A model generated the notes under the pieces. It saw nothing but the letters and a program-made list of their open reading frames with translations. It was not told the origin of the DNA and did no database searches. Shown here piece after piece: positions 13,010 to 60,353 of a stretch of 64,000 bases of DNA. Each line of letters opens with the position of its first letter. The stretch's first letter is position 1. The position numbers and the translations under genes are program-made. Origin of the DNA: Bdellovibrionota bacterium (GTDB lineage: Bacteria; Bdellovibrionota_C; UBA2361; JBIKUX01); the NCBI GenBank assembly GCA_044347345.1, contig JBIKUX010000004.1, positions 1 through 64,000 of the forward strand. Direction: 5' to 3'.

Positions 13010-13083
13010 GCGCCCTTAGCTCAGCCGGATAGAGCATCCGCCTTCTAAGCGGAGGGTCCCAAGTTCGAATCTTGGAGGGCGCG
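13010..13083 (+). tRNA. tRNA-Arg (anticodon TCT)
   Basis: Acceptor stem GCGCCCT/AGGGCGC, D-arm TAGCTCAGCCGGATAGAGC, anticodon arm TCCGC-CTTCTAA-GCGGA, T-loop GTTCGAATC; CCA not encoded. Confidence 0.96.
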
Positions 13084-13130
13084 TTATAGCTTAAATAGAT
13101 AAAGTTGCTTCTTTATCAGATACTTAATAA

Positions 13131-13523: not shown

Positions 13524-13582
13524 ATTAACTCATCGACTTCTATACTTGATAGCACTCATATAGTTTTTTAGAGTGGTTATCT

Positions 13583-14500: not shown

Positions 14501-14611
14501 AATTAATAGGGATGCTATTACCAATCGGGGGGCTATTACTAATTGGGATTCGATTGCTATAGTTGCTCTGCGATTATCTTTTACTTTGGCTTGCGTTACT
14601 TTTGCTCGGCG

Positions 14612-15460
14612 TTACTTTTTCTCCGTATATTTAATGCCTTCCCATAATGACTGTAGTTCATCGAGAGTAAGTGATGAGAGAGGAACCTTGCTCTGTTTTT
14701 CCATCTCCGTAAAGCGTCTGGTAAATTTGTCAGTTGCTTGTTGTAAAGCGCTTTCTGCGTCAATCGAGAGGCGCCTAGCTAGCTGTACGAGTGAAAAGAG
14801 AATGTCTCCGAATTCGTCAATCATTTCTTTTTTATCGTTACTTTTTTCAGCAGTGACAAATTCACGAACTTCATCTAGGACTTGTTCTTGGATACCAGCT
14901 ATAGTTGGCCATTCAAAGCCAATTCTGGCAGCTTTTTCACTAACTCGTTGAGCTCGTAAAAGTGCTGGTAAAGCTTTTGGAACACCACTGAGAATCGTGC
15001 TGGTGGTATTTTCAATTTTTCCGGTAGAAGTAGTGCTGCCACCGGATTCAATTCTCCTTTCTTGTTCTTTAATTTGCTCCCATTGTACTTTTACTTGATC
15101 GCTTGAGGTCACTGGGTTTTTATTATTTTTTTGAAATACATGTGGATGTCTACTAATGAGTTTTTTACATAGAGTTTCAATAACGTCTATTACTGAGAAT
15201 GCACCGTTTTCTTCTGCTAACTGACTGTGTAGAACTACTTGCAGAAGTACGTCACCCAATTCTTTGCATAACTCTGCCATATCCTCACGCTCAATTGCGT
15301 CTAGGACTTCATAAGTTTCCTCAATTAAGTACGGTTTCAGCGATGAATGAGTTTGCTCTCTATCCCAAGGGCATCCTCTAATTGGATCTCGGAGAGTAGT
15401 AATAATCTCTCGCAATAACTGAAATTGATTAGAGTTTGACGATGACTTCTGATCTTCCAT
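14612..15460 (-). CDS. mazG: Nucleoside triphosphate pyrophosphohydrolase MazG
   Basis: GCPWDREQT, EETYEV, ELGDVLLQVV, RHPHVF, second EFGD domain. Confidence 0.95.
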   Translation of the reverse strand: MEDQKSSSNSNQFQLLREIITTLRDPIRGCPWDREQTHSSLKPYLIEETYEVLDAIEREDMAELCKELGDVLLQVVLHSQLAEENGAFSVIDVIETLCKKLISRHPHVFQKNNKNPVTSSDQVKVQWEQIKEQERRIESGGSTTSTGKIENTTSTILSGVPKALPALLRAQRVSEKAARIGFEWPTIAGIQEQVLDEVREFVTAEKSNDKKEMIDEFGDILFSLVQLARRLSIDAESALQQATDKFTRRFTEMEKQSKVPLSSLTLDELQSLWEGIKYTEKK

Positions 15461-15490
15461 AGTAGTTTTTTGTTTATATTAGTTAAATTT

Positions 15491-16303
15491 TTAAAAAGAT
15501 AATTGTTTTAAAATATCCATGCGAGAACACGCAATTATGGCAATTTCTACCGAAGCACCTTGCGATCTCAATAATTCTGTATTGACCTTAATAGTAGATC
15601 CTGAAGTAGATACATCATCTATCAATAATACTCGCTTATTGGCCAATGAATATTTTGTGGAGCGAAGATAAAATCTTAGTTTAATTAAGGAGTGTCTCTC
15701 ATCTAGTGTAGTATGAGTTACACTTCTCCAGCTCCACCAGCGACAAGCCAAAATAGGTCTAATGGGTAACTCAGGTGTATGCGTTAATTGTGAAAAATTT
15801 TTGCAAAAAGATTGTGCTATAAGCGAAGTTGGCTTAAACCCCCTTCGAAAAATATGGTGAGGTAAATGAGGCACTGGAACTATAATATCCCACGGTTTAT
15901 TGTCAGGTATTAGCTTCCTAGTTGACTTTGAAGTCATAACTTCTGCCAGAATCTCTGCAAGTTTTTTACCAAAAAACTGCGCGACTCGGCGATCGTGACC
16001 GTACTTCATTTTATGAATTAAGCTTCTGATCTCTTTTTTATATTTGTAGAGTAGTATTATGGGAGTACTTGTGGAGTCGTTCAAAGATTGCCAACTTTGG
16101 TGATAATGAAGCTTATTGACTTCAATGCTACATCTCTTGCAGAGCAATTCTTCTCTTGGTGGAATAATTGTGGACACTAGAGTACGAACACAAATAGCAC
16201 AGCGCCACCAAGGACTTACTTTTGCCAGAAAATTTAAAATTGATTGGCACTTAGGAGCAGAATTCGCATTTAGTTTATTTCTGCTGAAATCGTCCTTTTG
16301 CAC
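15491..16303 (-). CDS. comF: ComF-family phosphoribosyltransferase-like competence protein
   Basis: N-terminal CxxC...CxxC, IHKMKY, IVPVP, RRGF, PRT motif LLIDDVSTSGST. Confidence 0.8.
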   Translation of the reverse strand: MQKDDFSRNKLNANSAPKCQSILNFLAKVSPWWRCAICVRTLVSTIIPPREELLCKRCSIEVNKLHYHQSWQSLNDSTSTPIILLYKYKKEIRSLIHKMKYGHDRRVAQFFGKKLAEILAEVMTSKSTRKLIPDNKPWDIIVPVPHLPHHIFRRGFKPTSLIAQSFCKNFSQLTHTPELPIRPILACRWWSWRSVTHTTLDERHSLIKLRFYLRSTKYSLANKRVLLIDDVSTSGSTIKVNTELLRSQGASVEIAIIACSRMDILKQLSF

Positions 16304-16338
16304 CGGCTAATCTTTAAGCTTATCTTAGAAGTTATTAA

Positions 16339-17934
16339 TCACGAGTATATCAATAAGGATTTCCCTGTCATTTCTGATGGTTTGTCCAGACCCATGAGAT
16401 CCAAAATTGTTGGAGCTACATCACACAGAGCTCCATCTTTTCGCAGAGTAAACGGACATCTTTCTAAATTCCATTCTTTGCTTAATACAGTCACTGGCAC
16501 TGGAAAAGTCGTATGAGCTGTATGTGGAGATCCATTTTCATAGGAAATCATTTGTTCTGCATTACCGTGATCAGCGATTATTAAGATGCGCCATCCTTTA
16601 TCTAAAGCAAACATGACTAGCTCTTTTAGACAAGAGTTAACAGTTTCTACCGCTCGTATTGCGCTAGATAGTACCCCCGTATGTCCTACCATGTCGCAAT
16701 TAGCGTAATTTATACATGCAAAACCAAAATTATCTTCTGACATAACTTGAATTACTTTTTTTGTAAGTATTTGGGCACTCATCTCTGGTTTAAGATCGTA
16801 CGTTGCAACATCACGAGGCGATGGAACAAGAATGCGAATCTCCTTAGGTAAAGCTTCTTCCGCGCCTCCATTTAAAAAATAAGTTACATGAGGATACTTT
16901 TCCGTTTCAGCGGCTCTAATTTGTTTAATTCCTTGTTTCGCGATAACGGCTCCCAAGTAATTATTAATAGTAACTTGAGGGAAAAGTACTTTAAGGGCAA
17001 AATTTTGGTCGTATTCGGTTAATGTAAGGGTTCTATCTTGCTCAAAATAAGATGTATCTTTCTGACTAATAATTTTTGTAGGGTCAATTACTAATCCAGT
17101 GACAAGCTGTCGCATGCGGTCTGAGCGAAAATTCCAAAATATTACTCCGTCTTGCGGATTTATCCCTCGATAAGAAAAGGCTACACCAGGTTCAATAAAC
17201 TCATCAGTAATTCCTTTCTTATATTGATAATTAAACCAATCTGTTGGTGCCTCAAAGTGATTCCCCTCTCCGTGTAAAATAGTTTTGACCGCTTTAGCTG
17301 TTCGATCCGTTCTATTATCCCTATCCATGGCAAAATATCGTCCCACTACGGTGCCAATACATACTTCGGGATATTCTTTCAGAAATACTTCCAAGTTTTG
17401 TGTAAGAGATAGACCACTTTTTGGAGCTGTGTCACGACCATCTGAAATTATGTGCAGTATGATTGATTGAGAGCGTAAGGATTTTTGCCGAATCGCTTGA
17501 ACTAGTACTTTAATTAAAAGTAAAAGGTGGGAATAGTGAGAGTGAACGCCACCATCGCTATATAAACCTATTAAATGAATAGCTGGAGCGTCGCTACATT
17601 TTATAATCCAATTTTTCCAACAATCAGTTTCAAATATTGAACCAGAATCGAGAGCTTTAGATATTCGTAAAAGCCATTGTTCCACTACGCGACCTGCACC
17701 GATGTTGAGATGACCAACTTCTGAATTGCCCATTTGTCCTTCTGGCAGCCCGACTGATTCCCCGTGAGTCGTAAGAGTTGCTGATGGATATATTGTAGAC
17801 AAGCTGTGTAAAAAAGGAGCATTAGCCTGAGCGATTGCATTGCCTTCAAATTTTGGATTAATCCCGAATCCATCAAGAATACAGAGGAGGGTGGGATGCA
17901 CAGAATTAGTAGAGCGAAAATTTGAGTTAGTCAT
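16339..17934 (-). CDS. gpmI: 2,3-bisphosphoglycerate-independent phosphoglycerate mutase
   Basis: ILDGFG, GQMGNSEVGH, SDGGVHSH, DGRDT, ETEKYPHVT, DMVGH, ADHGNAE, HTAHT. Confidence 0.97.
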   Translation of the reverse strand: MTNSNFRSTNSVHPTLLCILDGFGINPKFEGNAIAQANAPFLHSLSTIYPSATLTTHGESVGLPEGQMGNSEVGHLNIGAGRVVEQWLLRISKALDSGSIFETDCWKNWIIKCSDAPAIHLIGLYSDGGVHSHYSHLLLLIKVLVQAIRQKSLRSQSIILHIISDGRDTAPKSGLSLTQNLEVFLKEYPEVCIGTVVGRYFAMDRDNRTDRTAKAVKTILHGEGNHFEAPTDWFNYQYKKGITDEFIEPGVAFSYRGINPQDGVIFWNFRSDRMRQLVTGLVIDPTKIISQKDTSYFEQDRTLTLTEYDQNFALKVLFPQVTINNYLGAVIAKQGIKQIRAAETEKYPHVTYFLNGGAEEALPKEIRILVPSPRDVATYDLKPEMSAQILTKKVIQVMSEDNFGFACINYANCDMVGHTGVLSSAIRAVETVNSCLKELVMFALDKGWRILIIADHGNAEQMISYENGSPHTAHTTFPVPVTVLSKEWNLERCPFTLRKDGALCDVAPTILDLMGLDKPSEMTGKSLLIYS

Positions 17935-18016
17935 TTTTATACAATTTTTATCTATAAAGTTCTTTAGAGTTAATCAAATTTAATCAACGCCATTATTGAG
18001 ACGTTTATGATATTAG

Positions 18017-19375
18017 CTAAGCTTTAGTTGAGTTTGTAATTGCCAGCGTAGTTAGCAAGTTGTCTTGGCTTAATGAGACATCTCCAAGTACTCCTCTGAT
18101 CAACGAAGAATAAGCTGCTGGAGCGTTACCGAAAAGACTTTGATATACCGCCGTTAAAAGCCAATATGGAAGACTTGTGAGCTCAACTTTTTTAAGATCG
18201 TCTAGTATAAACTTTGTATTGGTTGATAGTTCATTAAGAGCTTCATCAGCTTCTTCTCGCATTCCTTCAGAGAGATAGAGTAGGGCTAGAACAAACGTCA
18301 TTAATAGTCGATCTTCATTCGAGAGTTCAATTATTAATTTCTCTTTGGTGACAGCTTTGCCAAAGAAGTTCCGCCCTGCCGTTTTTTCTTTTTTACTATA
18401 TAAAGTGCTACCGAGCTTTGCCGCCGCAATTGCTTGCTTACCATCTTTACGGTTAAGCCAGTATTTAACTACTCTTAGCAAAGCAACTCCCTTACCTTCT
18501 CTTTGTGCTACTTCCATTAGGAGTGAAGCGGCTTCGTTTTTATCACCGTACTCACCGAGTAAAGTGCCGAGAGTAACCATAATTGGTATATAACTCGGAT
18601 ATTGAATATGAAGAGATTTAAGAGGTTCAATGAGTGATGGCTCGATTTTTTTTGGTCGATTTTCGTCTTCTCCCAGTACCAAGCGTTGATAAGCAATAGT
18701 AGCCTTAAGCTCTTGAGCAGAATGTCCGAGTAGTTCAAGTCGACGTGAATATTCAAGCGCTTCATCATATTTTTTGAGATAAACTGCAAGCTCTCCGGCT
18801 AAGGCAAGTGTTTTTGGCTTATCTCCTTGTCTAAGTAAAGTATGAACACTGCCTAGAGCACCAATGAAGTTGCCTTTCTTTTGGTAAACTTCAGTCGCTT
18901 TAAGGAGAAGAGCGCGATGAAGTGGTTCAGCGATATCTTGATTTTCAAAAGCTTGCATAGCTAAATTGATGTCACCTTGTTGGAGTAACATATCTCCGAC
19001 TAAGTACCTTGCAAGCTGGTCATCAGGAGTGCTTCTAACTACGGATTGAATAATAGATCGAGCCAACTCATGTTCTCCTTCCTGATGAGCTGCTAATGCC
19101 TCAAGGAGTTGTTGACGATTTTGCAAAAAATGCTTTAATTGCCGCTGTAATTTACGCTCTCTTAATGTAGCTCTCACTGATGTAACCGAGGATGCTAGCG
19201 TGCTTGTGAGAAGTCCGAGAATAAAAGTAGCAAGAAGAACTACACCTGTAGGTGCTGAAAAAGTGTGACCAGGGATAAGATTGACCTCGGCTGTAGTCCA
19301 ATTTCGCATCAATAGATAAGCAGTTGCTGAAACAAGTAGAATAGCAACAAGGAGTTTGCCGAGTCGTGTGATCAT
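18017..19375 (-). CDS. Membrane-anchored TPR protein with LapA-like two-TM N-terminus
   Basis: Two TM segments flanking N..V.L.PG (LapA/DUF1049-like), then TPR-like helical repeats. The ATG at 19375 follows an AGGGAG SD. Confidence 0.65.
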   Translation of the reverse strand: MITRLGKLLVAILLVSATAYLLMRNWTTAEVNLIPGHTFSAPTGVVLLATFILGLLTSTLASSVTSVRATLRERKLQRQLKHFLQNRQQLLEALAAHQEGEHELARSIIQSVVRSTPDDQLARYLVGDMLLQQGDINLAMQAFENQDIAEPLHRALLLKATEVYQKKGNFIGALGSVHTLLRQGDKPKTLALAGELAVYLKKYDEALEYSRRLELLGHSAQELKATIAYQRLVLGEDENRPKKIEPSLIEPLKSLHIQYPSYIPIMVTLGTLLGEYGDKNEAASLLMEVAQREGKGVALLRVVKYWLNRKDGKQAIAAAKLGSTLYSKKEKTAGRNFFGKAVTKEKLIIELSNEDRLLMTFVLALLYLSEGMREEADEALNELSTNTKFILDDLKKVELTSLPYWLLTAVYQSLFGNAPAAYSSLIRGVLGDVSLSQDNLLTTLAITNSTKA

Positions 19376-46943: not shown

Positions 46944-46959
46944 TGGCACACTTTATGCT
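46944..46959 (+). promoter_or_regulatory. Sigma54 promoter upstream of flgKL
   Basis: TGGCACACTTTATGCT = TGGCAC-N5-ATGCT, 55 nt before the flgK start. Confidence 0.7.
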
Positions 46960-47014: not shown

Positions 47015-48652
47015 ATGGTATATATCCCAAAAATTCTTGGAAATGCGAGGTCATCTCTTTCTGTTCAGCAAGCCGCTATAGGTGTAATCGGTAATAACAT
47101 CGCTAATGTTAATACTGAGGGATATTCCAGACGTCGTGTAGAGACTGAAGCTATTGGTCCAGGACGATCTGGTCCAGGAGCGCAGGTTGGTTCAGGTGTA
47201 AAATTTTCAGGCGCTCGTCCGATTGTCGATCAGTATGTCCAAAATCAACTCACTACTACTAGGGGGCAAAAAGAGGCCGCTGCTATCGAGGATAGTTATT
47301 TGGCTCGAATTGAGAGGCTTTTTAGTCTCACTGGTGAAAGCCCAACTATAGGTTCAAGTATCACTGAGTTTTTTTCAGCTATAAATGACTTGTCATCTAA
47401 TCCAACAAGCTATGAATTACGTTTTAATCTACTCGAGCGAGCCAGAACTCTAACATCTACTATAAGTAGTACAATGCAGTCGCTTGCTGATATGCAACGC
47501 GAAGCTGACAACAGATTAACAGATGAGATTTCAGTAGTTAACTCTATAACCTCAGAGGTAGCAAAATTAAATGGCTTAATCATGACTCGTGAGCGTTCAA
47601 CTGGTGGAGTAGCTGCTGACGAACGCGATCAACGTGAAGTCCTATTGCAGAAATTAGCTGAGAAGATAAGTTTTACTCGTTCTGAGGTAAATGACGGTTC
47701 AGTACTGATATACTTAGAGGGAGGTCTTCCAATAGTAGTAGGTGTTGAGTCTCGTGAATTAGAGGTGACAGTTACTCCATCTTTTGGAACTCCAGCTCAA
47801 GAGACAGCTATTGGTGGAGGACATTTAAGTTATATAGTTCATGATCTTCAAACTGGCCCCATTCAGTCCCATTTTGATTTGACTCAAACGCTTCAAAATG
47901 GGTCTGGAGCTATCGGAGCACTTTTACGAATTCGTGGTTATGCTACACCCACAGAGAGCGCATTTCAAGCAAATGGTGAGATTGTTGGTGTAGCGCAGAG
48001 AGTAGAAGCGCTAGCTCGTGATTTACTTACCTCATTTAACACTACGTATCTTGGGCCCGATGAAGATGCTATTACAGCCGGACTGCAATACAGTTCGTTA
48101 GATCTTGACGGAGCAAGACCAACACAGCCTTTTGCATTTTTTACTTTTCCGTCTGCTGTAGCAAGGGATGCTGTGGCCGACGGTATTCCAGCAAACGATG
48201 ATCTAAATACTCTAGGATTTGTATCGTATGCTCGACTTATAGATGTAGCCATAACAGATCCGAGAAAAATAGCAGCAGCCAGAGATACAAATCCAGCAAA
48301 TGGAGTTATTGGATTTCAACCAGGTAATTCTGAAAATCTTCGAGCGCTATATGATACACGAAATCAACAACGTAATTTTTCTGCGGGCACTTTCTCTCGA
48401 ATAACAACCTACGACGAAAACTACAATGAGTTACTTTCCTCGGTAGGAAACACTAGATCAGCTTCTCGTGTAAATTTATCGGTAGCAGAGACAAATTTTG
48501 AAATTGCTCAAAATCGTAGGGAGCAATTATCAGGTGTTAGTTTGGATGAGGAGTTTTCGCAGTTAATACTGTACCAAAAAGCTTATGAAGCTTCAGCTCG
48601 AATGATAAAAGTCGCCCAGCAACTAATTGATGAGGTGGTAAATCTTATATGA
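47015..48652 (+). CDS. flgK: Flagellar hook-associated protein FlgK
   Basis: GNNIANVNTEGYSR, G.GV, DERDQR..L, SGVSLDEE..L..YQKAYEASAR. Confidence 0.95.
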   Translation: MVYIPKILGNARSSLSVQQAAIGVIGNNIANVNTEGYSRRRVETEAIGPGRSGPGAQVGSGVKFSGARPIVDQYVQNQLTTTRGQKEAAAIEDSYLARIERLFSLTGESPTIGSSITEFFSAINDLSSNPTSYELRFNLLERARTLTSTISSTMQSLADMQREADNRLTDEISVVNSITSEVAKLNGLIMTRERSTGGVAADERDQREVLLQKLAEKISFTRSEVNDGSVLIYLEGGLPIVVGVESRELEVTVTPSFGTPAQETAIGGGHLSYIVHDLQTGPIQSHFDLTQTLQNGSGAIGALLRIRGYATPTESAFQANGEIVGVAQRVEALARDLLTSFNTTYLGPDEDAITAGLQYSSLDLDGARPTQPFAFFTFPSAVARDAVADGIPANDDLNTLGFVSYARLIDVAITDPRKIAAARDTNPANGVIGFQPGNSENLRALYDTRNQQRNFSAGTFSRITTYDENYNELLSSVGNTRSASRVNLSVAETNFEIAQNRREQLSGVSLDEEFSQLILYQKAYEASARMIKVAQQLIDEVVNLI

Positions 48653-49644
48653 TACGTCGCATAGCAGAAAATCAAGTCGCTAAAAGTCTCCTTTCTCAGG
48701 TTCAAAGAAGTAGAGTTTCTATAGATAAGTATTCGCGAGAGATCTCTACAGGGCTAAAGACAGCTTCACCTGGAGATACTCAGAGACCAGCGACTATTAA
48801 TCAATTTCAGTCAATGTTAACAAGATTTGAAAAATTTGAAACAACATTAAATTCAGTTAAAGGCTCTTTAATGTTTCAAGATGATACACTTAGTGAAGCT
48901 CATGATATTCTTGCTCGTGCGCAGGAATTAGCTACCTCTGGAGCAAATGACACTAATTCTTCAGACGAGAGAAAGCAGATTGCAACTGAGGTGTTAGAAT
49001 TGCGTGAAGCTTTAATGCAGTTAGCAAACTCTACATATCAAGGAAAGTATGTATGGAATGGTACCATAACGAATGTTCCTCCCTTTAGCCCACAAACATA
49101 TATAGTTCCTGCTACAGGCAATTTAAATACTCGTTATTCTTTCGATTCATCGATACTTGGATCCACTTCTGAACAGTCAGTATCTGTGAGTGATCAAGTT
49201 GATGTACGCTTTAATTCACGAGCCGATAAAATTTGGTCAAATGCTATTTCGGCAGTTGAGAGGTTAGCAAGAGCTCTTTCAGGGTATGAAAGTCTTCCAG
49301 CGCCGCCGGCATTACCAGATGGCACAGGTGCCGCTTATACTTTTCCTGCTGATTTTACCCGTCAATCTCAAGATATTAGAGCATCTATAGATTTAATTAA
49401 AAAAGCGAGAGAATCTGATATACAGGTAGAAAGAGTTAGTCTTGGTGGGCGAATGGAGCGACTTGAGGTAGCTACTTCACTTATTAATCTTAGTAAAGGA
49501 TCAGCTAAACAAGTTCTTGCTGAACTTAGTGAGGCAGATATTACTGAATCAGCATCCAAGCTTTCTCTTGCTCAGACAAACCTCGAGGCATCGTTAACTT
49601 TAACCAGTAGGATACTTAACCTATCAGTACTTGATTATCTTTAA
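48649..49644 (+). CDS. flgL: Flagellar hook-associated protein FlgL
   Basis: ISTGLK...PGD, GANDT.S..ER..IA.EV, LANS.YQGKYV, C-terminal LSVLDYL; ATGA overlap with flgK. Confidence 0.92.
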   Translation: MIRRIAENQVAKSLLSQVQRSRVSIDKYSREISTGLKTASPGDTQRPATINQFQSMLTRFEKFETTLNSVKGSLMFQDDTLSEAHDILARAQELATSGANDTNSSDERKQIATEVLELREALMQLANSTYQGKYVWNGTITNVPPFSPQTYIVPATGNLNTRYSFDSSILGSTSEQSVSVSDQVDVRFNSRADKIWSNAISAVERLARALSGYESLPAPPALPDGTGAAYTFPADFTRQSQDIRASIDLIKKARESDIQVERVSLGGRMERLEVATSLINLSKGSAKQVLAELSEADITESASKLSLAQTNLEASLTLTSRILNLSVLDYL

Positions 49645-50967
49645 TTAGGTTATCTTACTTAGAAGGGAATTTAAAAGTCTGCTCTGATTCTCACTTGAAT
49701 ATCCGGTAGCCGACAAGAATTCGTTAAGGAGAGATTCAGCTTCCATTATGCGAGCAAGTTCAGGGTCTGGTGTGCCACCAAATAAAATAAGCTCGCGGTC
49801 TCTTTCAAGTCTTAAAATAGATCTTAAAATAATAGATCTAATTTTTTTTGAATCACTATCAAGTAGCTTTTGAGTAAGTCGTGAAACACTTTGGAGAAAA
49901 TCAATAGCAGGGTAGATACCTCGAGCGGCGATAGTAGATGATAAAATTATATGTCCATCTAGTAGACTTTTTACTTCCTGCGCAAGAGGATCCTGATCAG
50001 CGTCAGTTTCGGTTAAAAGAGTATAGAGAGCAGTAATTGATCCATTACAATTTGTCCCAGCTCTTTCCAACAGCATTGGTAACTCTCGTAGTACTGAAGG
50101 TGTAAGACCTCCTCTTAGCTCTCGCTCTCCAGCAGATAAGCCTATTTCTCGGATTGCTCTAGCTGTTCGCGTAAGTGAGTCAACCAGCAATAGTACGCGC
50201 TTACCCTGGTCTCTATAATGTTCAGCAATAGCTGTAGCTACAAATGGAGCAAGACGACGAGCCATTGGAGGTTCATCAGAGGTTGATACCACCATTACAG
50301 TTCGAGTAAGTGATTCCTCGCCTATTGTTTCCTCTAGTATAGAGCGCACCTCACGACCACGCTCTCCAACTGTACAGTAAACGATATAGTCAACTTCAGC
50401 ATTGGCACAAATTTCTCCAAGAAGTGTTGATTTACCTACACCTGGACCGGCAAATATACCCAGCCGTTGTCCGTATCCAATAGGTGTCAGAGTATCAATT
50501 GAACTAATGCCAGTAATTAATTGTGTATTTATTGGTAGACGAGTAAGCGGATTGGGAGTAGCAGATAAAATTGGATTTACCGTGATTGTATTTACGCTGT
50601 TTAGAGATAAACCTATACGAGGATTGTTGAGATGCGAACTATTTTTGATTTTATTAGTTTTATTTAAAATATCCCCGGAAGGAGATAATACTAAACCTTG
50701 AGGATTATCAGGGATTTTAATTGTAAAATTAGCATCATGAAAAAATACTGGGGAATTTAGTGAGACTCCATCTAATGAGCCAAATGGAATGAGTGTCGCG
50801 TATTGCTCTGAGAGAGCAACTACTTCACCTAAAAGAGCAGTTTTATCATTTTTAATTAATTTACAGGTCGCTCCAATAGTTAGACCTGGAAAATTGGCGG
50901 TAACTTTGTTTGGTTCAATATTAATAACAGTACCGTGAGGTGGAATTGTGCCAATATAATTAGACAT
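49645..50967 (-). CDS. FliI/SctN-family type III export ATPase (divergent)
   Basis: TGI..ID.L.PIG.GQRLGIFAGPGVGKST, VGERGREV, VVSTSDEP, LLVDSLTR, LLERAG, LDGHI.LS, YPAID.L.SVSR. Confidence 0.9.
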   Translation of the reverse strand: MSNYIGTIPPHGTVINIEPNKVTANFPGLTIGATCKLIKNDKTALLGEVVALSEQYATLIPFGSLDGVSLNSPVFFHDANFTIKIPDNPQGLVLSPSGDILNKTNKIKNSSHLNNPRIGLSLNSVNTITVNPILSATPNPLTRLPINTQLITGISSIDTLTPIGYGQRLGIFAGPGVGKSTLLGEICANAEVDYIVYCTVGERGREVRSILEETIGEESLTRTVMVVSTSDEPPMARRLAPFVATAIAEHYRDQGKRVLLLVDSLTRTARAIREIGLSAGERELRGGLTPSVLRELPMLLERAGTNCNGSITALYTLLTETDADQDPLAQEVKSLLDGHIILSSTIAARGIYPAIDFLQSVSRLTQKLLDSDSKKIRSIILRSILRLERDRELILFGGTPDPELARIMEAESLLNEFLSATGYSSENQSRLLNSLLSKIT

Positions 50968-50979
50968 GCAGATGCCATC

Positions 50980-51660
50980 TTATTTTTTTGTAAGAGTTTT
51001 TAGAGAAGAAAAATAATTTTTAAATGAAAAGGTAAGTTCACCTTGATTGGTAGCTAATACTATAGTCATTGGTTGGACTAAGTTTTTTTCCTCTATTGGC
51101 AAATTAAGAGTAGAGGATAGTTTACTGAAATACTGTGATTCGCCTGGTGGCACAAATATCATTAGTGGAGATACGTTAATCAGTTTGCCTACTGTGTCTT
51201 TGATGGAAGTACATAGCACTTTTCGTTGCTTGGTAGGAAGTGTGCCAATTATTGATTCGCATAGATTCAGTGAGTAATTGATCATATTTGATGATAATTC
51301 TTCGATGTAATCCAAGAGGCTATTGTTTATTTGTTGGTAAATAATTTGTTGTATGTTTCTCCACTCATGTTCTCTTTCTTGCCTAAAAGCTTCGAAAATA
51401 CGGTGTTGACGTGCTCGGAGGGCTTTTATTTTTTTTGCAGCATCTTTTCTTGAAATCAGTGTCTTATCGTGACAATTTTCATTAATCGTAGCACAAGAGG
51501 AGTCTTTATTTTTTAAGATAAGCTTTAGATTACCAAAAGTAGCGTTGGTATCTGAGTCTCGATTGTGTACTAGCAACTGCAATGATTTTTGCTCTGATGC
51601 TGTTTTATCTCGTGATTCGTGGGATTGTTCGCTTTGGATTATCCAACTTTCTTGAAGCAT
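50980..51660 (-). CDS. Putative FliH/SctL-like stator protein (highly divergent)
   Basis: 12 nt upstream of the ATPase; helical middle, L.LCE.IIG, C-terminal I.V.P...L......VL.T.QG.L layout of FliH. Confidence 0.5.
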   Translation of the reverse strand: MLQESWIIQSEQSHESRDKTASEQKSLQLLVHNRDSDTNATFGNLKLILKNKDSSCATINENCHDKTLISRKDAAKKIKALRARQHRIFEAFRQEREHEWRNIQQIIYQQINNSLLDYIEELSSNMINYSLNLCESIIGTLPTKQRKVLCTSIKDTVGKLINVSPLMIFVPPGESQYFSKLSSTLNLPIEEKNLVQPMTIVLATNQGELTFSFKNYFSSLKTLTKK

Positions 51661-51738
51661 AGTAATTCTTAATATTTTAAACTTACTAAGTTCAGTAATC
51701 GTTACGAGAATGGGTTTGTTGCTAAAATAATAAATAAT

Positions 51739-53352
51739 TTAACTTAAATCTTCAGAATTTTTTTGATTTAAAATTTGTATTATTCCCTTTATTTCAGGAC
51801 TTTTTAGAGCAAAATTTAGAAGTATATAGATGAATGTTCCTAATATTATTTTTAGGAAAAAAAAATCCGAAAATAAAAAAGATGCCAACAAGAAGGCTAC
51901 ACCTGTAGAAATTAAGGCTCTTATTAAACTAATTAGCATTAGCTTACCAATATTGCTTGTATCTAGCGTAATATACCTAATTATTAGAAAGATGGTGCTA
52001 GCTAGTGATCCAACTGTCGATGCAGTAGCAAGACCTACATGACCTAATGACCATGAGATCGGAAGATAGGTTTGAATAAAGCTGAGGCTATCAGCAAATA
52101 ATCCTTTCAATTCAGATTTAGGAGCACCCATTGTGATAACGGCTGTTAGCATAGAAATGCCTAGTGAAATAACCGCACTTTGAAGGGGAATGTTTAGCAT
52201 TTTTCGAGCTGTAAAAGCCCTAGCTAAGAGCGAAGAGCAACTCACACTCCAAAGACTAACACTAAGTGCTTTAACAGCGCTTGCAGTAGCCATAGTTGCG
52301 TCCGGAGAAAAGGCACCTCTTTCAAACAGAGCACGAACTATTATGTTACTTTCTGATAGAAGAAATGCGGTAAAAGGAATCATCATAAAGCTCGTAGCTG
52401 ATAGAGCGGCTCCTAGTTGAGATGAAGCCATATTGCGGTCTCCTTGAGCCTCTGCCCTGGAAAGAATCGGCAGTAGCACTGAGGCTAGTGATATAGAGAA
52501 TACGCCGATTGGAAGCTGAGTGATTCTATCGGCGTAATAAAGCGCTGATACAGCACCTTCGCCGACTAGTGAGGCTAAGATAGTGTTTATTAGAATTGTT
52601 AATTGATACACACCAGCTCCGGCAGCTGCGGGTATCATAAGACGAAGAGTTGCTCGAACCGCCGGAGACCAGATATTTGTGCCCCAAAAGGAAAAAAGTT
52701 TTATACCAACTGTATAAAGAGCTGGAAGTTGAACCAGCACTTGAATCATACCACCAGCTAATACGCTTATTCCTAAAAAAATACATGCAGAAGAGGGAGC
52801 AGCAAAATAAAATGCCGCCACTGCACCAATTATTAAAACTATGTTCATCACTACTTGAGCCCATGCAGAGGCACCAAATACTAAATGAGCGTTAAGAGCT
52901 CCGTTAATTAGTACGACAACACTTACAAAAATAATGTAAGGAAACATAATTCTTGTAAGTGCTGTGGTGAGTGCAAACGCTTCAGGATTGACTCCAAAGC
53001 CTGGAGAAAATATATCCACAATTTGTGGAGCGGTAATAATACCCAAGAGTGTTATAAAACCAGTTGCAAGGAGCAAAGTAGCTAGTACACTTGAAAATGC
53101 TTTCTGCGCTTGATGTGCCCCGAGTCGCAGCTGATCAGTAAATGTGGGAACAAAAGCTGATGTTAAAGCTCCTTCCGCAAATAAACTTCTCAGTAGATTA
53201 GGAATTCGGAAAGCTACGAAAAAAGCATCGGCATACCAAGATGTACCGAGCAATCTGGCTACTAAGAGATCTCTGATAAAACCAAGTAAGCGACTAAGCA
53301 GTGTTAGCACTGAAACAATGGTCGTTCCTCTGACTAGAGATGACCTACTCAC
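51739..53352 (-). CDS. murJ: Lipid II flippase MurJ
   Basis: TLLSRLLGFIRD, ADAFFVAFRIPNLLR.LFAEGA, YYADRI.QLPIG, LFERGAF. Confidence 0.95.
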   Translation of the reverse strand: MSRSSLVRGTTIVSVLTLLSRLLGFIRDLLVARLLGTSWYADAFFVAFRIPNLLRSLFAEGALTSAFVPTFTDQLRLGAHQAQKAFSSVLATLLLATGFITLLGIITAPQIVDIFSPGFGVNPEAFALTTALTRIMFPYIIFVSVVVLINGALNAHLVFGASAWAQVVMNIVLIIGAVAAFYFAAPSSACIFLGISVLAGGMIQVLVQLPALYTVGIKLFSFWGTNIWSPAVRATLRLMIPAAAGAGVYQLTILINTILASLVGEGAVSALYYADRITQLPIGVFSISLASVLLPILSRAEAQGDRNMASSQLGAALSATSFMMIPFTAFLLSESNIIVRALFERGAFSPDATMATASAVKALSVSLWSVSCSSLLARAFTARKMLNIPLQSAVISLGISMLTAVITMGAPKSELKGLFADSLSFIQTYLPISWSLGHVGLATASTVGSLASTIFLIIRYITLDTSNIGKLMLISLIRALISTGVAFLLASFLFSDFFFLKIILGTFIYILLNFALKSPEIKGIIQILNQKNSEDLS

Positions 53353-54729: not shown

Positions 54730-55632
54730 CTAGTTGTTATTACTTGTCGTGCGTAACCACAGTTCGCTATTTTTAGATGCTGTAATAACTTCTGTCCCTT
54801 TTAACACACCAATTCGTATCAAAGTCTCATTATTTTTCTCTTGAGCTTGGATTAGCTCAAGTCCATCAAATTCTGAAGGGGGGTAATACGGATGTCCGAG
54901 CTCAGTTGATATCAGATTTGTATTGGGTAGTTTGAGTACAAAATTAGTTTCATCCTCTCTGGTTAGTGAAAAATTCGGAAGTTCCGTAAATTTAAGTTTA
55001 ATCGCTTTAATTCCTGATGGATTTAGTTTTACAAATTCGAGTGATTCAAGAGTTGCTAAATTCGTAGCTGGAATATCTGTATTGGGTATAACTTTTTCTT
55101 TGGGAGAGGTGTTTGGGATTAGTGCGCGCATTGATACCGAGGCGCGTATATCGTCGTTTATTTTATCAGCAGGTGTATTTTTTGCTAAAATCTTGGTGGG
55201 TAGATTATCTTTACCGTTAAACGATAAAGCTAACACGCCAGAGGATTCATGTTTTTCTACCTTAGGTTTTGCATATCCATTGAGATCAAATACTATCCTT
55301 AATTTATCGGCGTGAGATGATATTCTAATTTTTGAGAAAGGTGACGTATTTGGTCCGTCGATAACTTCGTGCCAGCCTTGCAATTTGGTGCTTGGAATAT
55401 CAACGACTAGCCTGTTTGGACTAGAGAGAGTAAAACTTTTTAAAGTTTCAGCAAATGGGCTTTCAAAAGAGATAGCTGGGGTCATTTGCTGCGAAAATGA
55501 AATGGTCAATTTACCATTCTTATGTGTGCGAGTAATCTGTTGGGTGTCATCGGCATAGGTAGATTTTGATTCTACCAAAATAACCGAGGCTAAAGTTAAA
55601 GCTGCTAAGCGAGAAAATACTTTTCTTCTCAT
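54730..55632 (-). CDS. Exported AMIN-domain protein
   Basis: Signal peptide; FTLSSPNRLVVDIP...IRI......LRIVFDL (AMIN); a second AMIN-like beta domain at the C-terminus. Confidence 0.75.
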   Translation of the reverse strand: MRRKVFSRLAALTLASVILVESKSTYADDTQQITRTHKNGKLTISFSQQMTPAISFESPFAETLKSFTLSSPNRLVVDIPSTKLQGWHEVIDGPNTSPFSKIRISSHADKLRIVFDLNGYAKPKVEKHESSGVLALSFNGKDNLPTKILAKNTPADKINDDIRASVSMRALIPNTSPKEKVIPNTDIPATNLATLESLEFVKLNPSGIKAIKLKFTELPNFSLTREDETNFVLKLPNTNLISTELGHPYYPPSEFDGLELIQAQEKNNETLIRIGVLKGTEVITASKNSELWLRTTSNNN

Positions 55633-55734
55633 ACGATCCCTTCCTTAAGGTAGCTTAAATTCCTCACACCTTAATTACTTGGATTACATCAACTAGGGTT
55701 TTCGATGCAGATAAATGAGTAATCTGATATTTTG

Positions 55735-57645
55735 TTAGATATTTCGTGGTAGCAGGCTGAGAATTATATTTGCATCGTCAGTTAATTTGTCCAGTAAGCT
55801 TGTCCCTATTTGTTGAATAGCCTGTTTTTGCGCTAGGGTTTTAGTCTCAACTGGAATATCGATATCAACAACGCGGTTATAGGCATCTCGTTCTAAATCT
55901 ACGGTTGTTCTTAGATGCTTTATAGCCACATCTAACCGAGCCTGTATGGCATCTATCGAGCCAATTTCGGCATTTACCCGGTCGTACATTTGAGAGAGCT
56001 TGCTTAAAGCTTGTTGACTAGATGATGGTGAAAGAAGATTTGGGTATCTAGTGTCTCCGGGCGAAAGAAAGGCATTACTACCAGTAACTATATCTAAAAA
56101 GCCGTCTCCATTTATATCTCCCACAGAAATTCCGTAGCCGTTATTACTCGATGGTCCAACTGTAAAGGGAGCTTTAAAAGTGCCGTCGCCATTTCCATAT
56201 GAAAGAGAAGCAAAGTTATCTACACCTACAGATGAGGTAGTGAGTAAATCTACCTTACCGTCTCCATTAAGGTCAGCTATTTCAATATCTCTTGTGTAGG
56301 GCGCGTGAGGAGTGCCAGCGAGTACTGAAGTACTTATAGTCACAGAGGGGTTGGGAATAGAAGAACCATTACCAAAGCTAATTCCAGCTTGTCCGTAATT
56401 AGTTTGGTCGTATATTACTATGCGGTCGAGAAAGGTATCTTGGTTTAAATATCCCACATTTGAGCCTCGTCTGTTACCATTTTCAGCAATAAAATCACCA
56501 GTGGTGAAAGTTCTGTTACCGTTATTATAAAATTGTCTTGCGCCGTACCCTTGATTAGCGTCGGTTAGGATTAAATCTAACCGTCCGTCACCATTTATAT
56601 CTCCTATATCAATATCGGGAATTTCTACGCCCCAAGTTATCACAGTAGAACTGGCAAATCCTCCTTGCCCGTTCCCCCAAAATATTTGGGCATTACCTTG
56701 CCTTCCTCCTATTGCAATATCAAGATTTCCATCAGCATCAATATCAGCTACATAAGGTTGACTCTCTCGGTTTACAGTAACTACGTTAGGAAGTGAGAAA
56801 AATGATTGTGGCATTGGAAAAGTGCCGTCTCCATTGTTTAAAAGAACCTCAACTGTATTCTGAAGAGAGGCCATTACAAGATCGGGTAAGCCATCTTTAT
56901 TAAAATCTCCTGAACTAGTGCCTCCGTAGTTCTTGCCGTTGCTATAGTCAGGAATTTCTTGTTCAGTCTTAAAGGTGCCATCACCGTTTCCTAATCTTAG
57001 GCTTGCTCTGTCGGCTGTTGTAACTGCGTCTAAGTAACCATCTGCGTTAAAATCATCGAGGGTAACCTGCCCATTTAGTCGGCCATCAGTAAAAGTCTGA
57101 GATAGAACCCACCCACCATTTGGTGCTTCAACGGTTTCAATTGGTCGATTTAATTCTTTACCAATGCCTATGGGAATAATGGCATGTTGTCCTATGCCAG
57201 CTTGTAATGTTGTGCTCGTAAATGAGCCGTCTAAAAGCTTTAGACCATTATATGAAGTTTCTTCAACTATACGATTATATTCATCTGTTAAGCTTTTAGC
57301 TTCTTCATTAAATGCTTGCCTCTGAGCTAAAGAGTAAGTTCCGTTTGCACTTTGCTGTGCTAGCTCCATTTGTCGTGTAACTATATTTGCAAGTGATTCT
57401 AAGGCACTTTTTGCTACCGTTACAGCGCTTATACCTTCATTTAGGTTTTGTACGCCTTTATAATTAATTGATTTTCGACCATTTAGAGATTCTGACAGTA
57501 TAAGGCCGGCAGCATCATCTTTCCCTGAGTTAATTCTACGGCCTGAAGCTAGTTTTTTGTAAGTTTCTGATAGTTCATTAGATGTCCTATTCAAATTAGC
57601 TTGAATAAGATTACTTAAAGAAGTACTCCCTATCTTCATTACCAC
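55735..57645 (-). CDS. Flagellin with an inserted seven-repeat FG-GAP/VCBS domain
   Basis: N-terminal flagellin helices (KLASGRRINS.KDDAAGL, N.NEGIS, RQMELAQQSANGTYS, T.YNG.KLLDG, LQAG); 7 D-x-[DN]-x-D-G-type repeats in aa ~175-530; C-terminal flagellin helices (IGSIDAIQARL, D.D...E, ILSLL). Confidence 0.9.
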   Translation of the reverse strand: MVMKIGSTSLSNLIQANLNRTSNELSETYKKLASGRRINSGKDDAAGLILSESLNGRKSINYKGVQNLNEGISAVTVAKSALESLANIVTRQMELAQQSANGTYSLAQRQAFNEEAKSLTDEYNRIVEETSYNGLKLLDGSFTSTTLQAGIGQHAIIPIGIGKELNRPIETVEAPNGGWVLSQTFTDGRLNGQVTLDDFNADGYLDAVTTADRASLRLGNGDGTFKTEQEIPDYSNGKNYGGTSSGDFNKDGLPDLVMASLQNTVEVLLNNGDGTFPMPQSFFSLPNVVTVNRESQPYVADIDADGNLDIAIGGRQGNAQIFWGNGQGGFASSTVITWGVEIPDIDIGDINGDGRLDLILTDANQGYGARQFYNNGNRTFTTGDFIAENGNRRGSNVGYLNQDTFLDRIVIYDQTNYGQAGISFGNGSSIPNPSVTISTSVLAGTPHAPYTRDIEIADLNGDGKVDLLTTSSVGVDNFASLSYGNGDGTFKAPFTVGPSSNNGYGISVGDINGDGFLDIVTGSNAFLSPGDTRYPNLLSPSSSQQALSKLSQMYDRVNAEIGSIDAIQARLDVAIKHLRTTVDLERDAYNRVVDIDIPVETKTLAQKQAIQQIGTSLLDKLTDDANIILSLLPRNI

Positions 57646-57779
57646 GATAAATAAAATTAGAAATAATACTTACTAAATCGAGCAGTCGCCCAGTTGGATA
57701 AGATACTTTAGGGATATAACTATAAAAATTTTAAAAAAATTTATTTAGCTCAGAAAGTAATTACTGACTATTAGGTAAG

Positions 57780-58544
57780 CTAAAGGGGAACATAATCATT
57801 TTGGGTGTATCCATTAGATGAATTAGCAGATTGAAGGAGGCTTTGGCGACGAGCGGCTATTTCTTTTGTTTCCTCATGTGCTTCCATCAATTTTTTTTCA
57901 AAAACTACTAGAGCCGCCGAATATGGACTGGTCAAAATAAAGTGGCGATTTTTTCGCTTTTTGTTATCACGAAAAGTAATATGCAGTTTTCTGTTGTTGG
58001 AATAACTTGATTCACCTGACGGAGATTCACCGTAAACGTTTAATTTATCGTCTAAAATCTTTCCTAGTTCTAAGTTTGCACCGTTAAGACCTTCAGAAAG
58101 CATGATGATAGCATCGTTTAGTAGCGCTACCCATACCGCCGCTTCTCTTACTTCACCTACAACATTTTCAAATGATGGCATATTATCTTGTGATGTATCT
58201 TCAATGCGTAAGTGTCCTCGAAATAGTAGTAAGACCGTTAAGTCTTTTGAGTTTGCCGAAAGAGCAAAGCGACGTGCCGCAGATCGTGCGGCAAGATATT
58301 CGAGAATAGTTTTCGGTCGAAGATGCCGAAACCGACGGCTAGAGGCAGATTGAAATACAAATGGGGAGATAATGAGGGAAAACCAGATAAATTTAGCTAG
58401 CTCTAGTCCAATAGCTACTGTGCCGGTAGTTAAAATGAAGAATGCAACCCATACAATACCGTTAGAGTGCGACTTAGCTAAAATCTCAAGCTTTTCTTCA
58501 GGTGGGATGCGTCGCCAAACTTCTTCTGGGTTTAGAAGTTCCAT
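57780..58544 (-). CDS. Hypothetical two-TM protein with a possible PH-like cytoplasmic domain
   Basis: Two hydrophobic segments at aa ~29-64, then beta-strand pattern and a long C-terminal helix. Confidence 0.7.
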   Translation of the reverse strand: MELLNPEEVWRRIPPEEKLEILAKSHSNGIVWVAFFILTTGTVAIGLELAKFIWFSLIISPFVFQSASSRRFRHLRPKTILEYLAARSAARRFALSANSKDLTVLLLFRGHLRIEDTSQDNMPSFENVVGEVREAAVWVALLNDAIIMLSEGLNGANLELGKILDDKLNVYGESPSGESSYSNNRKLHITFRDNKKRKNRHFILTSPYSAALVVFEKKLMEAHEETKEIAARRQSLLQSANSSNGYTQNDYVPL

Positions 58545-58621
58545 AGGTATGATGTTTGGTTTAAGCCATCAGAGTTTGAATATTAGATTCCTTTAGGAAT
58601 CATAGTCTCGTTTATCTCATT

Positions 58622-58637
58622 TGCATAACTCGAGCCA
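58622..58637 (-). promoter_or_regulatory. Sigma54 promoter upstream of the gene at 57780-58544
   Basis: Minus strand TGGCTCGAGTTATGCA = GG-N10-GC, 77 nt before the ATG. Confidence 0.55.
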
Positions 58638-58763
58638 AAGAGGTTAACGGCATTTTTTTTAGCAACCTTAGGATTTATCACACGATTATCCAAAACAAAT
58701 TATTTAAGGGGAAGGATTGTCCTATTACGTTGGGCGATCTCGGGTGATATTAAGTGGTAAAAA

Positions 58764-60353
58764 ATGCTCGCAAAGGTTCAATCAGCAGTTCTTTCAGGTA
58801 TTGAAGCTACGATAGTACAAGTTGAGGTGGAGTTAAGAAAAGGGCCTAGAAAGTTTGTAATTATCGGTATGGGCGATAGTGCTGTTCAGGAATCGCGGGA
58901 GAGAATTATGGCCTCTTTAAGGTCTCTTCCTATCGAGCTGCCCGATCAAATTACGGTAAATTTAGCTCCTGCATCAGTCCGTAAAGTGGGGACTTGCCTC
59001 GAGCTTTCGATTGCAATTGGCGTTCTAGCTGCGATGGGAGATATCCCACTTGATACACTTCACCAAACTTTTTTTCTCGGTGAGTTATCTCTTGATGGTA
59101 CATTGAAAGCTATACCTCAACATCTGGCTCTTCTTCTGTCGATTTTACAGCAAGAGCCTTCCTGCATACTTACGCCTCATATACCTCTTCCTGAATCCTT
59201 ACATTGTAATCAAACTTTTGTGGCAGGGGTAAACTCTATCGAGCATGCTAGGTCGGTGCTCAGGGGGGAGGCTTCACTAGAGTGGGGAGGTCTGCCGTAT
59301 AGTGATGATAGTGTAAATGAAGAGCTTTTGCTTGATGAAGTAGCGGGACTGCATTTTGCAAAAAGAGCTCTTGAAATCGCATTAGCCGGAGGGCATAACA
59401 TCCTACTCAGTGGTCCTCCTGGATGCGGAAAGTCGATGCTTCTTCGAAGGGCACAATTTCTCGCTCCACCCTTATCTACTAGTGAAGTACTTGAAGTAGC
59501 GCAAATATACTCGTTAGCTGGAGCTTCATTAAAAGGAGTATTGCAAGGTCGAGCACCTTTTCGCTCTCCTCATCATAGTGTAAGTAGAGCGGCGCTTGCC
59601 GGCAGTAGCGCTCGTGGTATTCCTCATCCAGGAGAATTTTCGCTTTCTCATCGCGGCATTTTATTTTTAGATGAAATGCCAGAATTTTCGCGAGGATCCT
59701 TAGAGGCTTTAAGGGGGCCTCTTGAAGAGGGCGTAGTTAGTATCGCTCGCGCAGGTGGGGAGCAATCATTTCCAGCTCAATTCCAGCTTTTAGCGGCGAT
59801 GAATCCATGCCCATGTGGGACGAATGCCGGAGAAAATGCAAAATCATCTTCTGATTATAACCAAAGTTATAACTGTCGATGTTCAGCTTCATCTATTTTG
59901 CGCTATCAAGAGCGAATCTCTCAGCCACTCCGTGAGCGATTTGATATAAGGTGCGTTATATCTTCAAAGGTTGATGCAAAAAATCGTATAATGCCACTTT
60001 TATCAAGTGATATAACTGACTGTGCTGGACTCCGTTCACTTGCTCGGCCTGTTTCAAGAAAAGAGCACGATGAAACATTTGAACGAATAAAAAGAGGAAG
60101 AAACCGTATGCTTGATCGTCAAGGACGATTAAACCGATGGCTCAGTAATAATGACCTCGTCCAGGTTATTCAATTAAAAGATAGTGATCAATCTTATTTG
60201 ACTGAGGCTGCTAATAAAGCACGTCTTTCGATGAGAAGTATTACGAAATTGCTTAGGGTAGCTCGTACGATTGCTGATATTGATGATGTAGAGCAAGTTA
60301 CAAAGGATGAATTACAAGAGGCATTATTATACCAACAAGCTACTATGACCTAA
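58764..60353 (+). CDS. comM: YifB/ComM Mg-chelatase-like AAA+ ATPase
   Basis: AVQESRERI, ITVNLAPA, GELSLDG, AKRALEIA.AGGHN, GPPGCGKS, PFRSPHH, LFLDEMPEF, AMNPCPCG, RVARTIAD. Confidence 0.93.
   Translation: MLAKVQSAVLSGIEATIVQVEVELRKGPRKFVIIGMGDSAVQESRERIMASLRSLPIELPDQITVNLAPASVRKVGTCLELSIAIGVLAAMGDIPLDTLHQTFFLGELSLDGTLKAIPQHLALLLSILQQEPSCILTPHIPLPESLHCNQTFVAGVNSIEHARSVLRGEASLEWGGLPYSDDSVNEELLLDEVAGLHFAKRALEIALAGGHNILLSGPPGCGKSMLLRRAQFLAPPLSTSEVLEVAQIYSLAGASLKGVLQGRAPFRSPHHSVSRAALAGSSARGIPHPGEFSLSHRGILFLDEMPEFSRGSLEALRGPLEEGVVSIARAGGEQSFPAQFQLLAAMNPCPCGTNAGENAKSSSDYNQSYNCRCSASSILRYQERISQPLRERFDIRCVISSKVDAKNRIMPLLSSDITDCAGLRSLARPVSRKEHDETFERIKRGRNRMLDRQGRLNRWLSNNDLVQVIQLKDSDQSYLTEAANKARLSMRSITKLLRVARTIADIDDVEQVTKDELQEALLYQQATMT

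Follow-up and report, generated by a model that had tools for sequence, protein, structure and literature searches.

The window analysed here is a stretch of 64,000 nucleotides (positions 1 to 64,000 of contig JBIKUX010000004.1, assembly GCA_044347345.1) from a Bdellovibrionota bacterium. On its minus strand, at 55735..57645, lies a complete open reading frame (ORF) with a GTG start that encodes a flagellin of 636 amino acids in which a predicted FG-GAP beta-propeller is enclosed between the helical termini. Translation from the GTG codon yields M-V-M-K-I-G, in keeping with the family consensus MxIxIG, and the ORF shows an even GC content along its length. Read from the amino-terminus, with all features on the minus strand, the protein comprises flagellin D0/D1 helices (residues 1-165, 57151..57645), assigned from the Pfam family Flagellin_N, the helices of a structural model and Foldseek; a linker between D1 and the propeller (residues 166-176, 57118..57150), modelled with low confidence (predicted local distance difference test score, pLDDT, <50 at 168-176); a seven-bladed FG-GAP propeller of the integrin-alpha type (residues 177-534, 56044..57117), assigned from Pfam, motifs, VIA-align and Foldseek; and strongly diverged flagellin D1/D0 helices (residues 540-636, 55738..56028), assigned from Pfam Flagellin_C and the model helices. 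The feature is thus confirmed as real and as correctly described in the original prediction, which had been made from the letters of the DNA: it is a flagellin with a functional-looking outer domain, uncharacterised in the literature searched, and it is not rare. What is new here is the outlying divergence of its core, a second paralogue and a pseudogene in the same genome, the presence of the same head on a giant protein, the paralogue expansions of its relatives and its cover in RNA libraries.

The claim that flagellin helical domains enclose the repeats at both ends held in profile searches, in which each of the two Pfam families scored above its cut-off: Flagellin_N at residues 10-143 with 102.6 bits (cut-off 26.6) and, marginally, Flagellin_C at residues 550-632 with 25.3 bits (cut-off 23). 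Neither terminus is truncated, the alignments spanning model positions 6-139 of 139 and 4-86 of 86, respectively. Among NCBIfam models those for flagellins rank first, at up to 143 bits, yet under their full-length cut-offs. Two other identities were considered and rejected. The FlgL (HAP3) model TIGR02550 scores 43.7 bits against a cut-off of 127.2, and a separate flgL adjoins flgK at 48649-49644; as for an enzymatic flagellin of the HExxH or flagellinolysin type, the Pfam and NCBIfam scans returned no peptidase or other enzyme family.

Between the helices lie exactly the seven repeats that had been listed, starting at residues 198, 247, 301, 349, 399, 458 and 510 with a spacing of 48-59 residues, and in the Pfam search FG-GAP_3 (E 1.1e-42) and FG-GAP match six stretches each. 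The calcium-type loop D.[DN].DG..D is intact in six of the seven blades, the fifth, YLNQDTFLD, being degenerate. GNGDGTF-like turns, said to follow most repeats, do follow six of them (starting at residues 219, 270, 324, 374, 425 and 484), and the span of the propeller is a near match to the ~56056-57123 first given for the repeat region. The highest-conserved positions of the propeller are those of the structural calcium loop and the FG turns.

An AlphaFold2 model, built on a 70-sequence alignment of the family, has a mean pLDDT of 85.5 and a predicted template modelling score (pTM) of 0.65. It contains helices at residues 7-34, 41-100 and 106-129, short strands at 145-159, strands across 180-527 in the propeller region and C-terminal helices at 540-593 and 597-631. 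In Foldseek searches the whole model retrieves solved flagellar filaments (9n59, 7sn4, 9go6, 9gnz and others, E 1e-15 to 1e-12), and the middle retrieves the PVL lectin (2bwr, 4up4 and 5mb4, with template modelling scores of 0.56-0.58 by target) as well as UmbA4, ITFG2 and CRTAC1, the matches to the PVL lectin and UmbA4 having E values of 1e-9 to 1e-10. VIA-align superposes residues 177-534 on the propellers of integrin alpha subunits with a Z score of 31-32 and a root-mean-square deviation of 2.6-2.8 Å over ~330 aligned residues. In the model, then, the D0/D1 regions adopt the coiled-coil fold of solved filaments and the seven repeats close into one propeller, so that domain identity and fold agree in silico with the seven-bladed, integrin-alpha-like insert that had been proposed; judged by their motifs, the loops of the propeller would bind calcium. 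Assignment to the PVL-type beta-propeller lectins themselves was rejected, the NCBIfam model NF052348 giving 23.6 bits against a cut-off of 200, and the likeness to them is one of fold only.

The rarity that the original prediction implied did not survive a wider search. Of the 120 top-ranking database hits, 94 combine Flagellin_N with FG-GAP, the window's own protein being one of these 94, and what emerges is a large, automatically annotated family; that recurrence, with the even GC content across the gene, makes chimeric assembly junctions, named at the outset as a possible undoing of the prediction, unlikely. The hits that share the architecture are mostly ~600-690 amino acids long (one has 1,009) and 28-43% identical to our protein, and the other 93 all list Flagellin_C too. 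In the ESM Atlas at least five clusters of 60-103 members have this architecture, with Bdellovibrionota as the commonest phylum, and one cluster of 744 amino acids is commonest in Pseudomonadota. Among 124 genomes of the window's phylum, 62 match the protein at E<=1e-30, a tally that includes ordinary flagellins, and, among the matches listed, frames of 590-675 amino acids match it at full length in at least 34 other genomes. Only five of 80 organism-named loci of diverse phyla carry the propeller (three from Bdellovibrionota/Bdellovibrionales, two from a plain 'bacterium'), although these loci were found by a generic flagellin motif, are mostly ordinary flagellins and set no bound on the range of the propeller family. 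Five relatives have 12, 20, 23, 38 and 53 Flagellin_N matches; propeller-bearing frames of flagellin size, counted at E<=1e-15 with a query of the junction and propeller only, number at least 3, 5, 7, 7 and 17 in these five genomes. One genus (g17) has FliS yet no match to the protein at E<=1e-30, which indicates that propeller flagellins are not universal among flagellate relatives; two families (f4 and f5) gave no flagellin match in the phylum search, three genomes sampled from them had no FliS match, and by this evidence they are probably non-flagellate.

A tree of flagellin cores, computed from 260 D0/D1 columns of 194 flagellins (two of 196 inputs were dropped for >40% gaps) and read as unrooted splits because its branches are long, bears on the origin of the family. 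In it, 71 of the 77 propeller flagellin cores fall in one pure split (support 0.88) and 75 of the 77 in a split with three others (support 0.996); the protein of the window lies within the pure split as sister to the relative P0003 (support 0.968). These splits argue for an old, separate flagellin lineage and not for repeated recent insertions, and on present alignments the propeller flagellins form a dedicated clade, greatly expanded in uncultured Bdellovibrionota-type bacteria, to which our protein belongs. Tandem copies were seen in the relatives: in one genome four propeller flagellins stand back to back (G114, locus L116, C33:30000-49900) with gaps or overlaps of 1-2 nucleotides, three of the four with identical ribosome-binding regions, and three tandem copies occupy one of the five propeller-bearing loci mentioned above (L010). 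A third size class of flagellin, of 428-448 amino acids and with several copies per genome, was also seen in two relatives, G058 and G047 (L151:801-2111(-), L152:455-1801(-) and L153:494-1780(+)); these combine Flagellin_N and Flagellin_C with a middle of ~190 amino acids that has no Pfam match.

The original prediction had proposed an architecture search and a paralogue count in the genome; the former finds Flagellin_N, FG-GAP and Flagellin_C recurring together, and the latter gives two intact copies and one pseudogene. The genome (2.53 Mb, 95.8% complete) has nine Flagellin_N matches, comprising five short flagellins of 266-287 amino acids, FlgL, the gene of the window, a second intact propeller flagellin and a decayed third copy. 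The second intact copy (687 amino acids, contig C47:4861-6924, minus strand) has proline-rich (GTP)n linkers on both sides of the propeller, an arrangement that fits a tethered head. The decayed copy (contig C63:59170-60336, plus strand) keeps a good flagellin N-terminus and a canonical C-terminus; it has an in-frame TGA at 59785 and a TAA at 60172 and about two blades left. Recoding of its stops was rejected, as the two in-frame stops are different codons. On the same contig FliW lies ~4 kb upstream and FliA ~14 kb downstream of it. The longest branches of the core tree are those of the window's protein (0.87) and of the C47 paralogue (1.16).

A close relative of the propeller itself lies on a protein of another kind. 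Contig C18 encodes, at 11061-18608 on the plus strand, an FG-GAP protein of 2,515 amino acids with a hydrophobic, signal-like N-terminus (judged by eye), and our propeller is 49.6% identical over 341 amino acids to its last, C-terminal propeller and 43.8% identical to the second-to-last; among flagellin propellers, by comparison, its identity reaches 41% with the best relative and has a family median of 32%. The two units of the giant protein and the propeller of the window group together (support 0.982) in a tree of 114 propeller domains; the propeller of P0003 joins them next (support 1.0), and this whole group nests in a clade of 26 leaves made up of 24 flagellin propellers and the two giant units. 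These relationships are most simply read as the copying of a flagellin-type head into the giant protein, followed by a duplication within that protein, and the reuse of the propeller head suggests that it may be the unit under selection. Similar giant FG-GAP proteins, of 3,898 and 4,585 amino acids, were noted in relatives.

Within the window a flagellar cluster lies ~5-6 kb from the propeller flagellin gene and holds flgF/G-type rod genes, flgA, flgH, flgI, a gene for a rod-binding protein, flgN, flgK, flgL and a gene for a fliI-like ATPase; between the cluster and the flagellin gene are murJ, a phosphofructokinase gene and a gene for an AMIN-domain protein. Immediately upstream of the flagellin gene, a gene at 57780-58544 (minus strand) encodes a protein of 254 amino acids with no Pfam match and is covered by RNA-library contigs. 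Elsewhere in the genome are FliS, two FliD, FliW and FliA (FliA above its cut-off), and the flagellar gene set, as read in silico, is complete. A sigma-54-like element, TGGCAC-N5-ATGC, was seen at 46944-46958 of the window (plus strand), ~60 nucleotides upstream of flgK, which suggests a possible RpoN control of the hook-associated genes. The two genes for FliD, the filament cap, stand ~3 kb apart (C32:46542-47213(-) and 49367-50056(-), in frames of 487 and 472 amino acids) and could point to two filament types or to a cap dedicated to a subclass of flagellins.

Upstream of the flagellin gene, the imperfect sigma-28-like motif of the original prediction, TAAAGTAT-N12-GGCGACTG, is a putative promoter by exact sequence match, and its sequence and position (57683..57710, minus strand) are exactly as claimed; it is not clearly the relevant element, the feature shared with the family being a sigma-28 '-10'-like CGAT core, CTCGATTTA, which follows immediately downstream (57674..57682, minus strand) and whose TCGAT begins 36 nucleotides upstream of the start codon. 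Among 33 upstream regions of family members, two of which are the same locus fetched twice, [CT]CGAT[AT] occurs in 15, as compared with 4.6 on average and never more than 11 when the sequences were shuffled 300 times, and such a core hints at FliA-type control of the gene. A k-mer search found no strongly shared motif except CGAT-type words. Neither sigma-28 nor sigma-54 patterns were enriched in the 33 regions: a strict sigma-28 pattern (TAAA-N14-16-CCGATA, <=1 mismatch) occurs in none of the 33 (shuffle mean 0.4), a loose one in three (shuffle mean 1.2) and a sigma-54 pattern in two (shuffle mean 0.4). A scan of 55400-58800 for sigma-70 promoters and terminators gave no excess over shuffles.

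The gene was found in 23 listed sequencing runs, all of them lake-water or freshwater metagenomes, and seven of these are possible sources of the present DNA. Another five DNA runs, drawn from five studies, contain 0.83-0.96 of the sampled words, and four metatranscriptome runs, all from one single study, contain 0.30-0.66. Contigs from the latter, at >=99% identity, account for much of the ORF (examples span 55838-56260, 56259-56832, 56543-57017 and 57300-57640), and RNA-library contigs also span several neighbouring genes. In none of the four metatranscriptome runs do contigs cover the bins 49904-52323 and 59100-60067, holes that are not evidence of silence, and the intergenic stretch 57646-57765 is without a listed RNA-library contig, which bears on neither operon nor silence. 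The cover of the ORF is consistent with transcription in situ.

To account for these observations we favour, at a probability of roughly 0.45 and so a little short of even, a model in which the protein is a minor subunit of the flagellar filament, exported through the flagellar type III apparatus, that carries its calcium-stabilised propeller outward as a binding head. According to this model it would be a true flagellin paralogue in which a closed, seven-bladed FG-GAP propeller with calcium loops replaces the surface-exposed D2/D3 region, with short flexible linkers joining it to D1. The export apparatus would recognise it like any flagellin, and assembly would then place D0/D1 in the filament core and leave the propeller on the outside, where it might serve as a lectin- or adhesin-like head for surfaces, particles or other cells. 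The original prediction had offered two functions, such a head on a minor filament subunit or export of the protein through the flagellum as cargo, and the present data fit either.

Assembly into a filament is favoured by the canonical polymerisation core that the family at large retains. We defined 82 universal columns by requiring conservation in >=70% of each of two sets, 116 short and 75 propeller flagellins; the means over these columns are 0.89 for the short and 0.90 for the propeller flagellins, as compared with 0.28 for FlgL. This family-wide conservation is the pattern expected of polymerising subunits, and the C-terminus of the family consensus is canonical. Size would in principle be no obstacle, since Foldseek matches include flagellins of 792 amino acids in solved filaments (9au6). 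By a rough estimate from filament lattice dimensions, a disc of ~55 Å fits a surface cell of ~50 x 52 Å at a radius of >=90 Å. A complex prediction for the FliS of the genome (31-row alignment) with residues 536-636, made without controls, scored 0.00 and 0.00 and counts neither way.

Several findings weigh against the filament model, chief among them the state of this copy's own core. Conformity to the family was taken over columns conserved in >=80% of the other 69 members of the 70-sequence alignment. By this measure the N-terminal core of our protein, at 0.79, ranks second lowest of 70 (family mean 0.93), and the C-terminal core, at 0.52, ranks lowest (family mean 0.92, minimum elsewhere 0.74); the propeller, in comparison, scores 0.88 against 0.93. 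The erosion of the C-terminal D0 that had been remarked upon from the translation is thereby borne out and quantified. The protein keeps 0.70 of the universal columns, with only one of 191 reference flagellins lower, and the split is 0.78 in the N part and 0.52 in the C part; over the 27 universal C-terminal columns, too, only one of the 191 falls below it. From the C-terminal D0 the conserved QAN..P stretch has been lost, and the precomputed Pfam record of the protein is without Flagellin_C, unlike those of the other 93 hits that share the architecture. Because the polymerisation core is so unusually diverged, incorporation of this particular copy into a filament may be weak or specialised.

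The remaining points on this side concern expression, context and exposure. No Shine-Dalgarno core was found upstream of the gene, as compared with 17 of 33 family members that have one and with the AAGGAGG-type ribosome sites that precede the short flagellins of the same genome, and pattern scans found no canonical sigma-28 or sigma-54 promoter there. RNA libraries may include DNA, and their contigs carry no expression level. BLASTP of eight window neighbours against the ORFs of 23 related loci gave no match, and no conserved flagellar neighbours were found beside the family members of relatives, whose neighbours are unrelated (GNAT, beta-helix proteins, histidyl-tRNA synthetase (HisRS), a methyltransferase, a discoidin-domain protein). 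Finally, sheathed flagella occur in some Bdellovibrionota, and a head borne on the filament would be concealed beneath such a sheath.

It is the divergence of the core that keeps alive the strongest of the competing explanations, in which the flagellin termini serve mainly as an export signal and a chaperone handle and the propeller, once released, is a lectin or adhesin that is either soluble or only loosely attached. A secreted flagellin-like protein, FlaC, is found in Campylobacter, and could be likened to such a cargo. With 0.70 and 0.55 of the universal columns, respectively, the cores of our protein and of the still more diverged C47 paralogue lie far from the ~0.90 pattern, and secretion without assembly would also sit well with the loss of the D0 motif, with the appearance of this head on a giant protein that is not flagellar and with the presence of up to 17-33 long copies per relative genome, which are hard to picture all as filament components. 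But the model shows unbroken D0/D1 helices at both termini, neither of which is shortened, the family conserves the whole core, beyond an N-terminal signal, and we know of no family member that is secreted without assembly. On balance we regard secretion of this protein as cargo as doubtful, if a serious contender.

A broader and bolder proposal starts from the family and not from the single gene. Some Bdellovibrionota-type bacteria have tens of paralogues per genome, and it is tempting to speculate that FG-GAP flagellins constitute a diversified, calcium-dependent recognition repertoire delivered by the flagellum; in the genome studied here the head would be the selected unit, copied onto a giant Sec-type surface protein, while the flagellin scaffolds drift towards a secreted, non-filament lectin. 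We consider this composite picture unlikely as a whole. Were it true, the flagellum would double as a programmable organelle for adhesion or for the recognition of prey or particles.

Two further explanations are less likely than secretion as cargo. That the propeller is a mechanical outer layer, a bulky domain with no specific ligand that thickens or stiffens the filament or alters its hydrodynamics in viscous water or at surfaces, seems quite improbable: filament supercoiling and swimming in viscous media have been connected with the outer domains of other flagellins (PMC8931119; PMC11532411), and the top conserved positions of the propeller, in the structural calcium loop and FG turns, would suit such a role, but it leaves unexplained both the many diverged paralogues per genome and the reuse of the head on a giant non-flagellar protein, and the linkers seem to be flexible, with no packing onto the core. 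Least probable of all is a decaying relic, with the family being lost in this small genome and the copy drifting with little or no function, for although two intact copies and one pseudogene (with its TGA and TAA stops and ~2 blades) stand here against many copies in relatives, and the long branches (0.87 and 1.16), the outlying core conformity and the missing Shine-Dalgarno site would all fit decay, the 636-codon frame is intact, as are six of the seven calcium loops, the propeller conforms to the family nearly as well as its average member (0.88 against 0.93), and the gene recurs in many lake metagenome runs and in RNA-library contigs.

To return to the filament model, its interest lies in the fact that the outer domains of flagellins are the site where flagella gain functions beyond swimming. 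A closed, integrin-type propeller of 360 residues would rank among the largest and most clearly binding-type modules borne by a flagellin. Its display on filaments would array thousands of calcium-dependent binding heads along a rotating organelle, a plausible device for capture or recognition in a lineage that includes bacterial predators and a natural precedent for the flagellar display of large folded domains. More widely, the 12 to 53 flagellin-domain genes per relative genome, together with the head on the giant protein, point to an unstudied and fast-diversifying recognition system.

Comparison with flagellins of solved structure places the protein among them in plan. The filaments of E. 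coli O157:H7 (7sn4), Azotobacter vinelandii (9n59), Salmonella FliC (9gnz and 1ucu) and Geovibrio thiophilus (9au6) have the same D0/D1 core, and in all of them the outer domain is inserted at the distal end of D1, as it is here. It differs in that its core is much more diverged than theirs and in the outer domain itself: those of solved flagellins are described as immunoglobulin (Ig)-like, beta-barrel or 'skinny' (PMC11532411), in contrast to the single closed propeller of ~360 residues on flexible linkers that is predicted here.

The closest parallel in print comes from an AlphaFold survey of flagellin outer domains, which mentions 'WD40-repeats in cluster #55', notes cellular homologues and suggests that this cluster was co-opted from other proteins (Fields et al., 2024; PMC11532411). 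Cluster #55 and our protein share a predicted beta-propeller as flagellin outer domain, a likeness drawn from the main-text description only (PMC11532411). In that main text the cluster is described as WD40, the words FG-GAP, integrin, VCBS, Bdellovibrio and Bdellovibrionota each occur zero times, and neither calcium loops nor a copy number are named for it (PMC11532411). A full-text literature search, with relevance judged mostly by title and abstract, found no paper on a flagellin with an FG-GAP, VCBS or integrin-like domain, and the original prediction's statement that no characterised example is known thus held in the literature searched.

A functional, non-structural domain in the variable region of a flagellin does have a precedent in the enzymatic flagellins. 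Flagellinolysin is an enzymatic flagellin of the HExxH type. In the survey by Fields et al. this type makes up cluster #15 (PMC11532411). Unlike their peptidase, the insert described here is a repeat propeller of a binding type. Its fold is that of integrin alpha, of the fungal GlcNAc lectins PVL and AAL (2bwr and 4tqj) and of UmbA4 from Streptomyces (9oee), which have the same seven FG-GAP blades and the same D-x-D/N-x-D-G-x-x-D loops. The propellers of integrin alpha, PVL and UmbA4 are only 10-21% identical to ours and are not inserted into a flagellin; what the propellers of integrin alpha, the PVL and AAL lectins and UmbA4 have in common is that all of them are binding heads.

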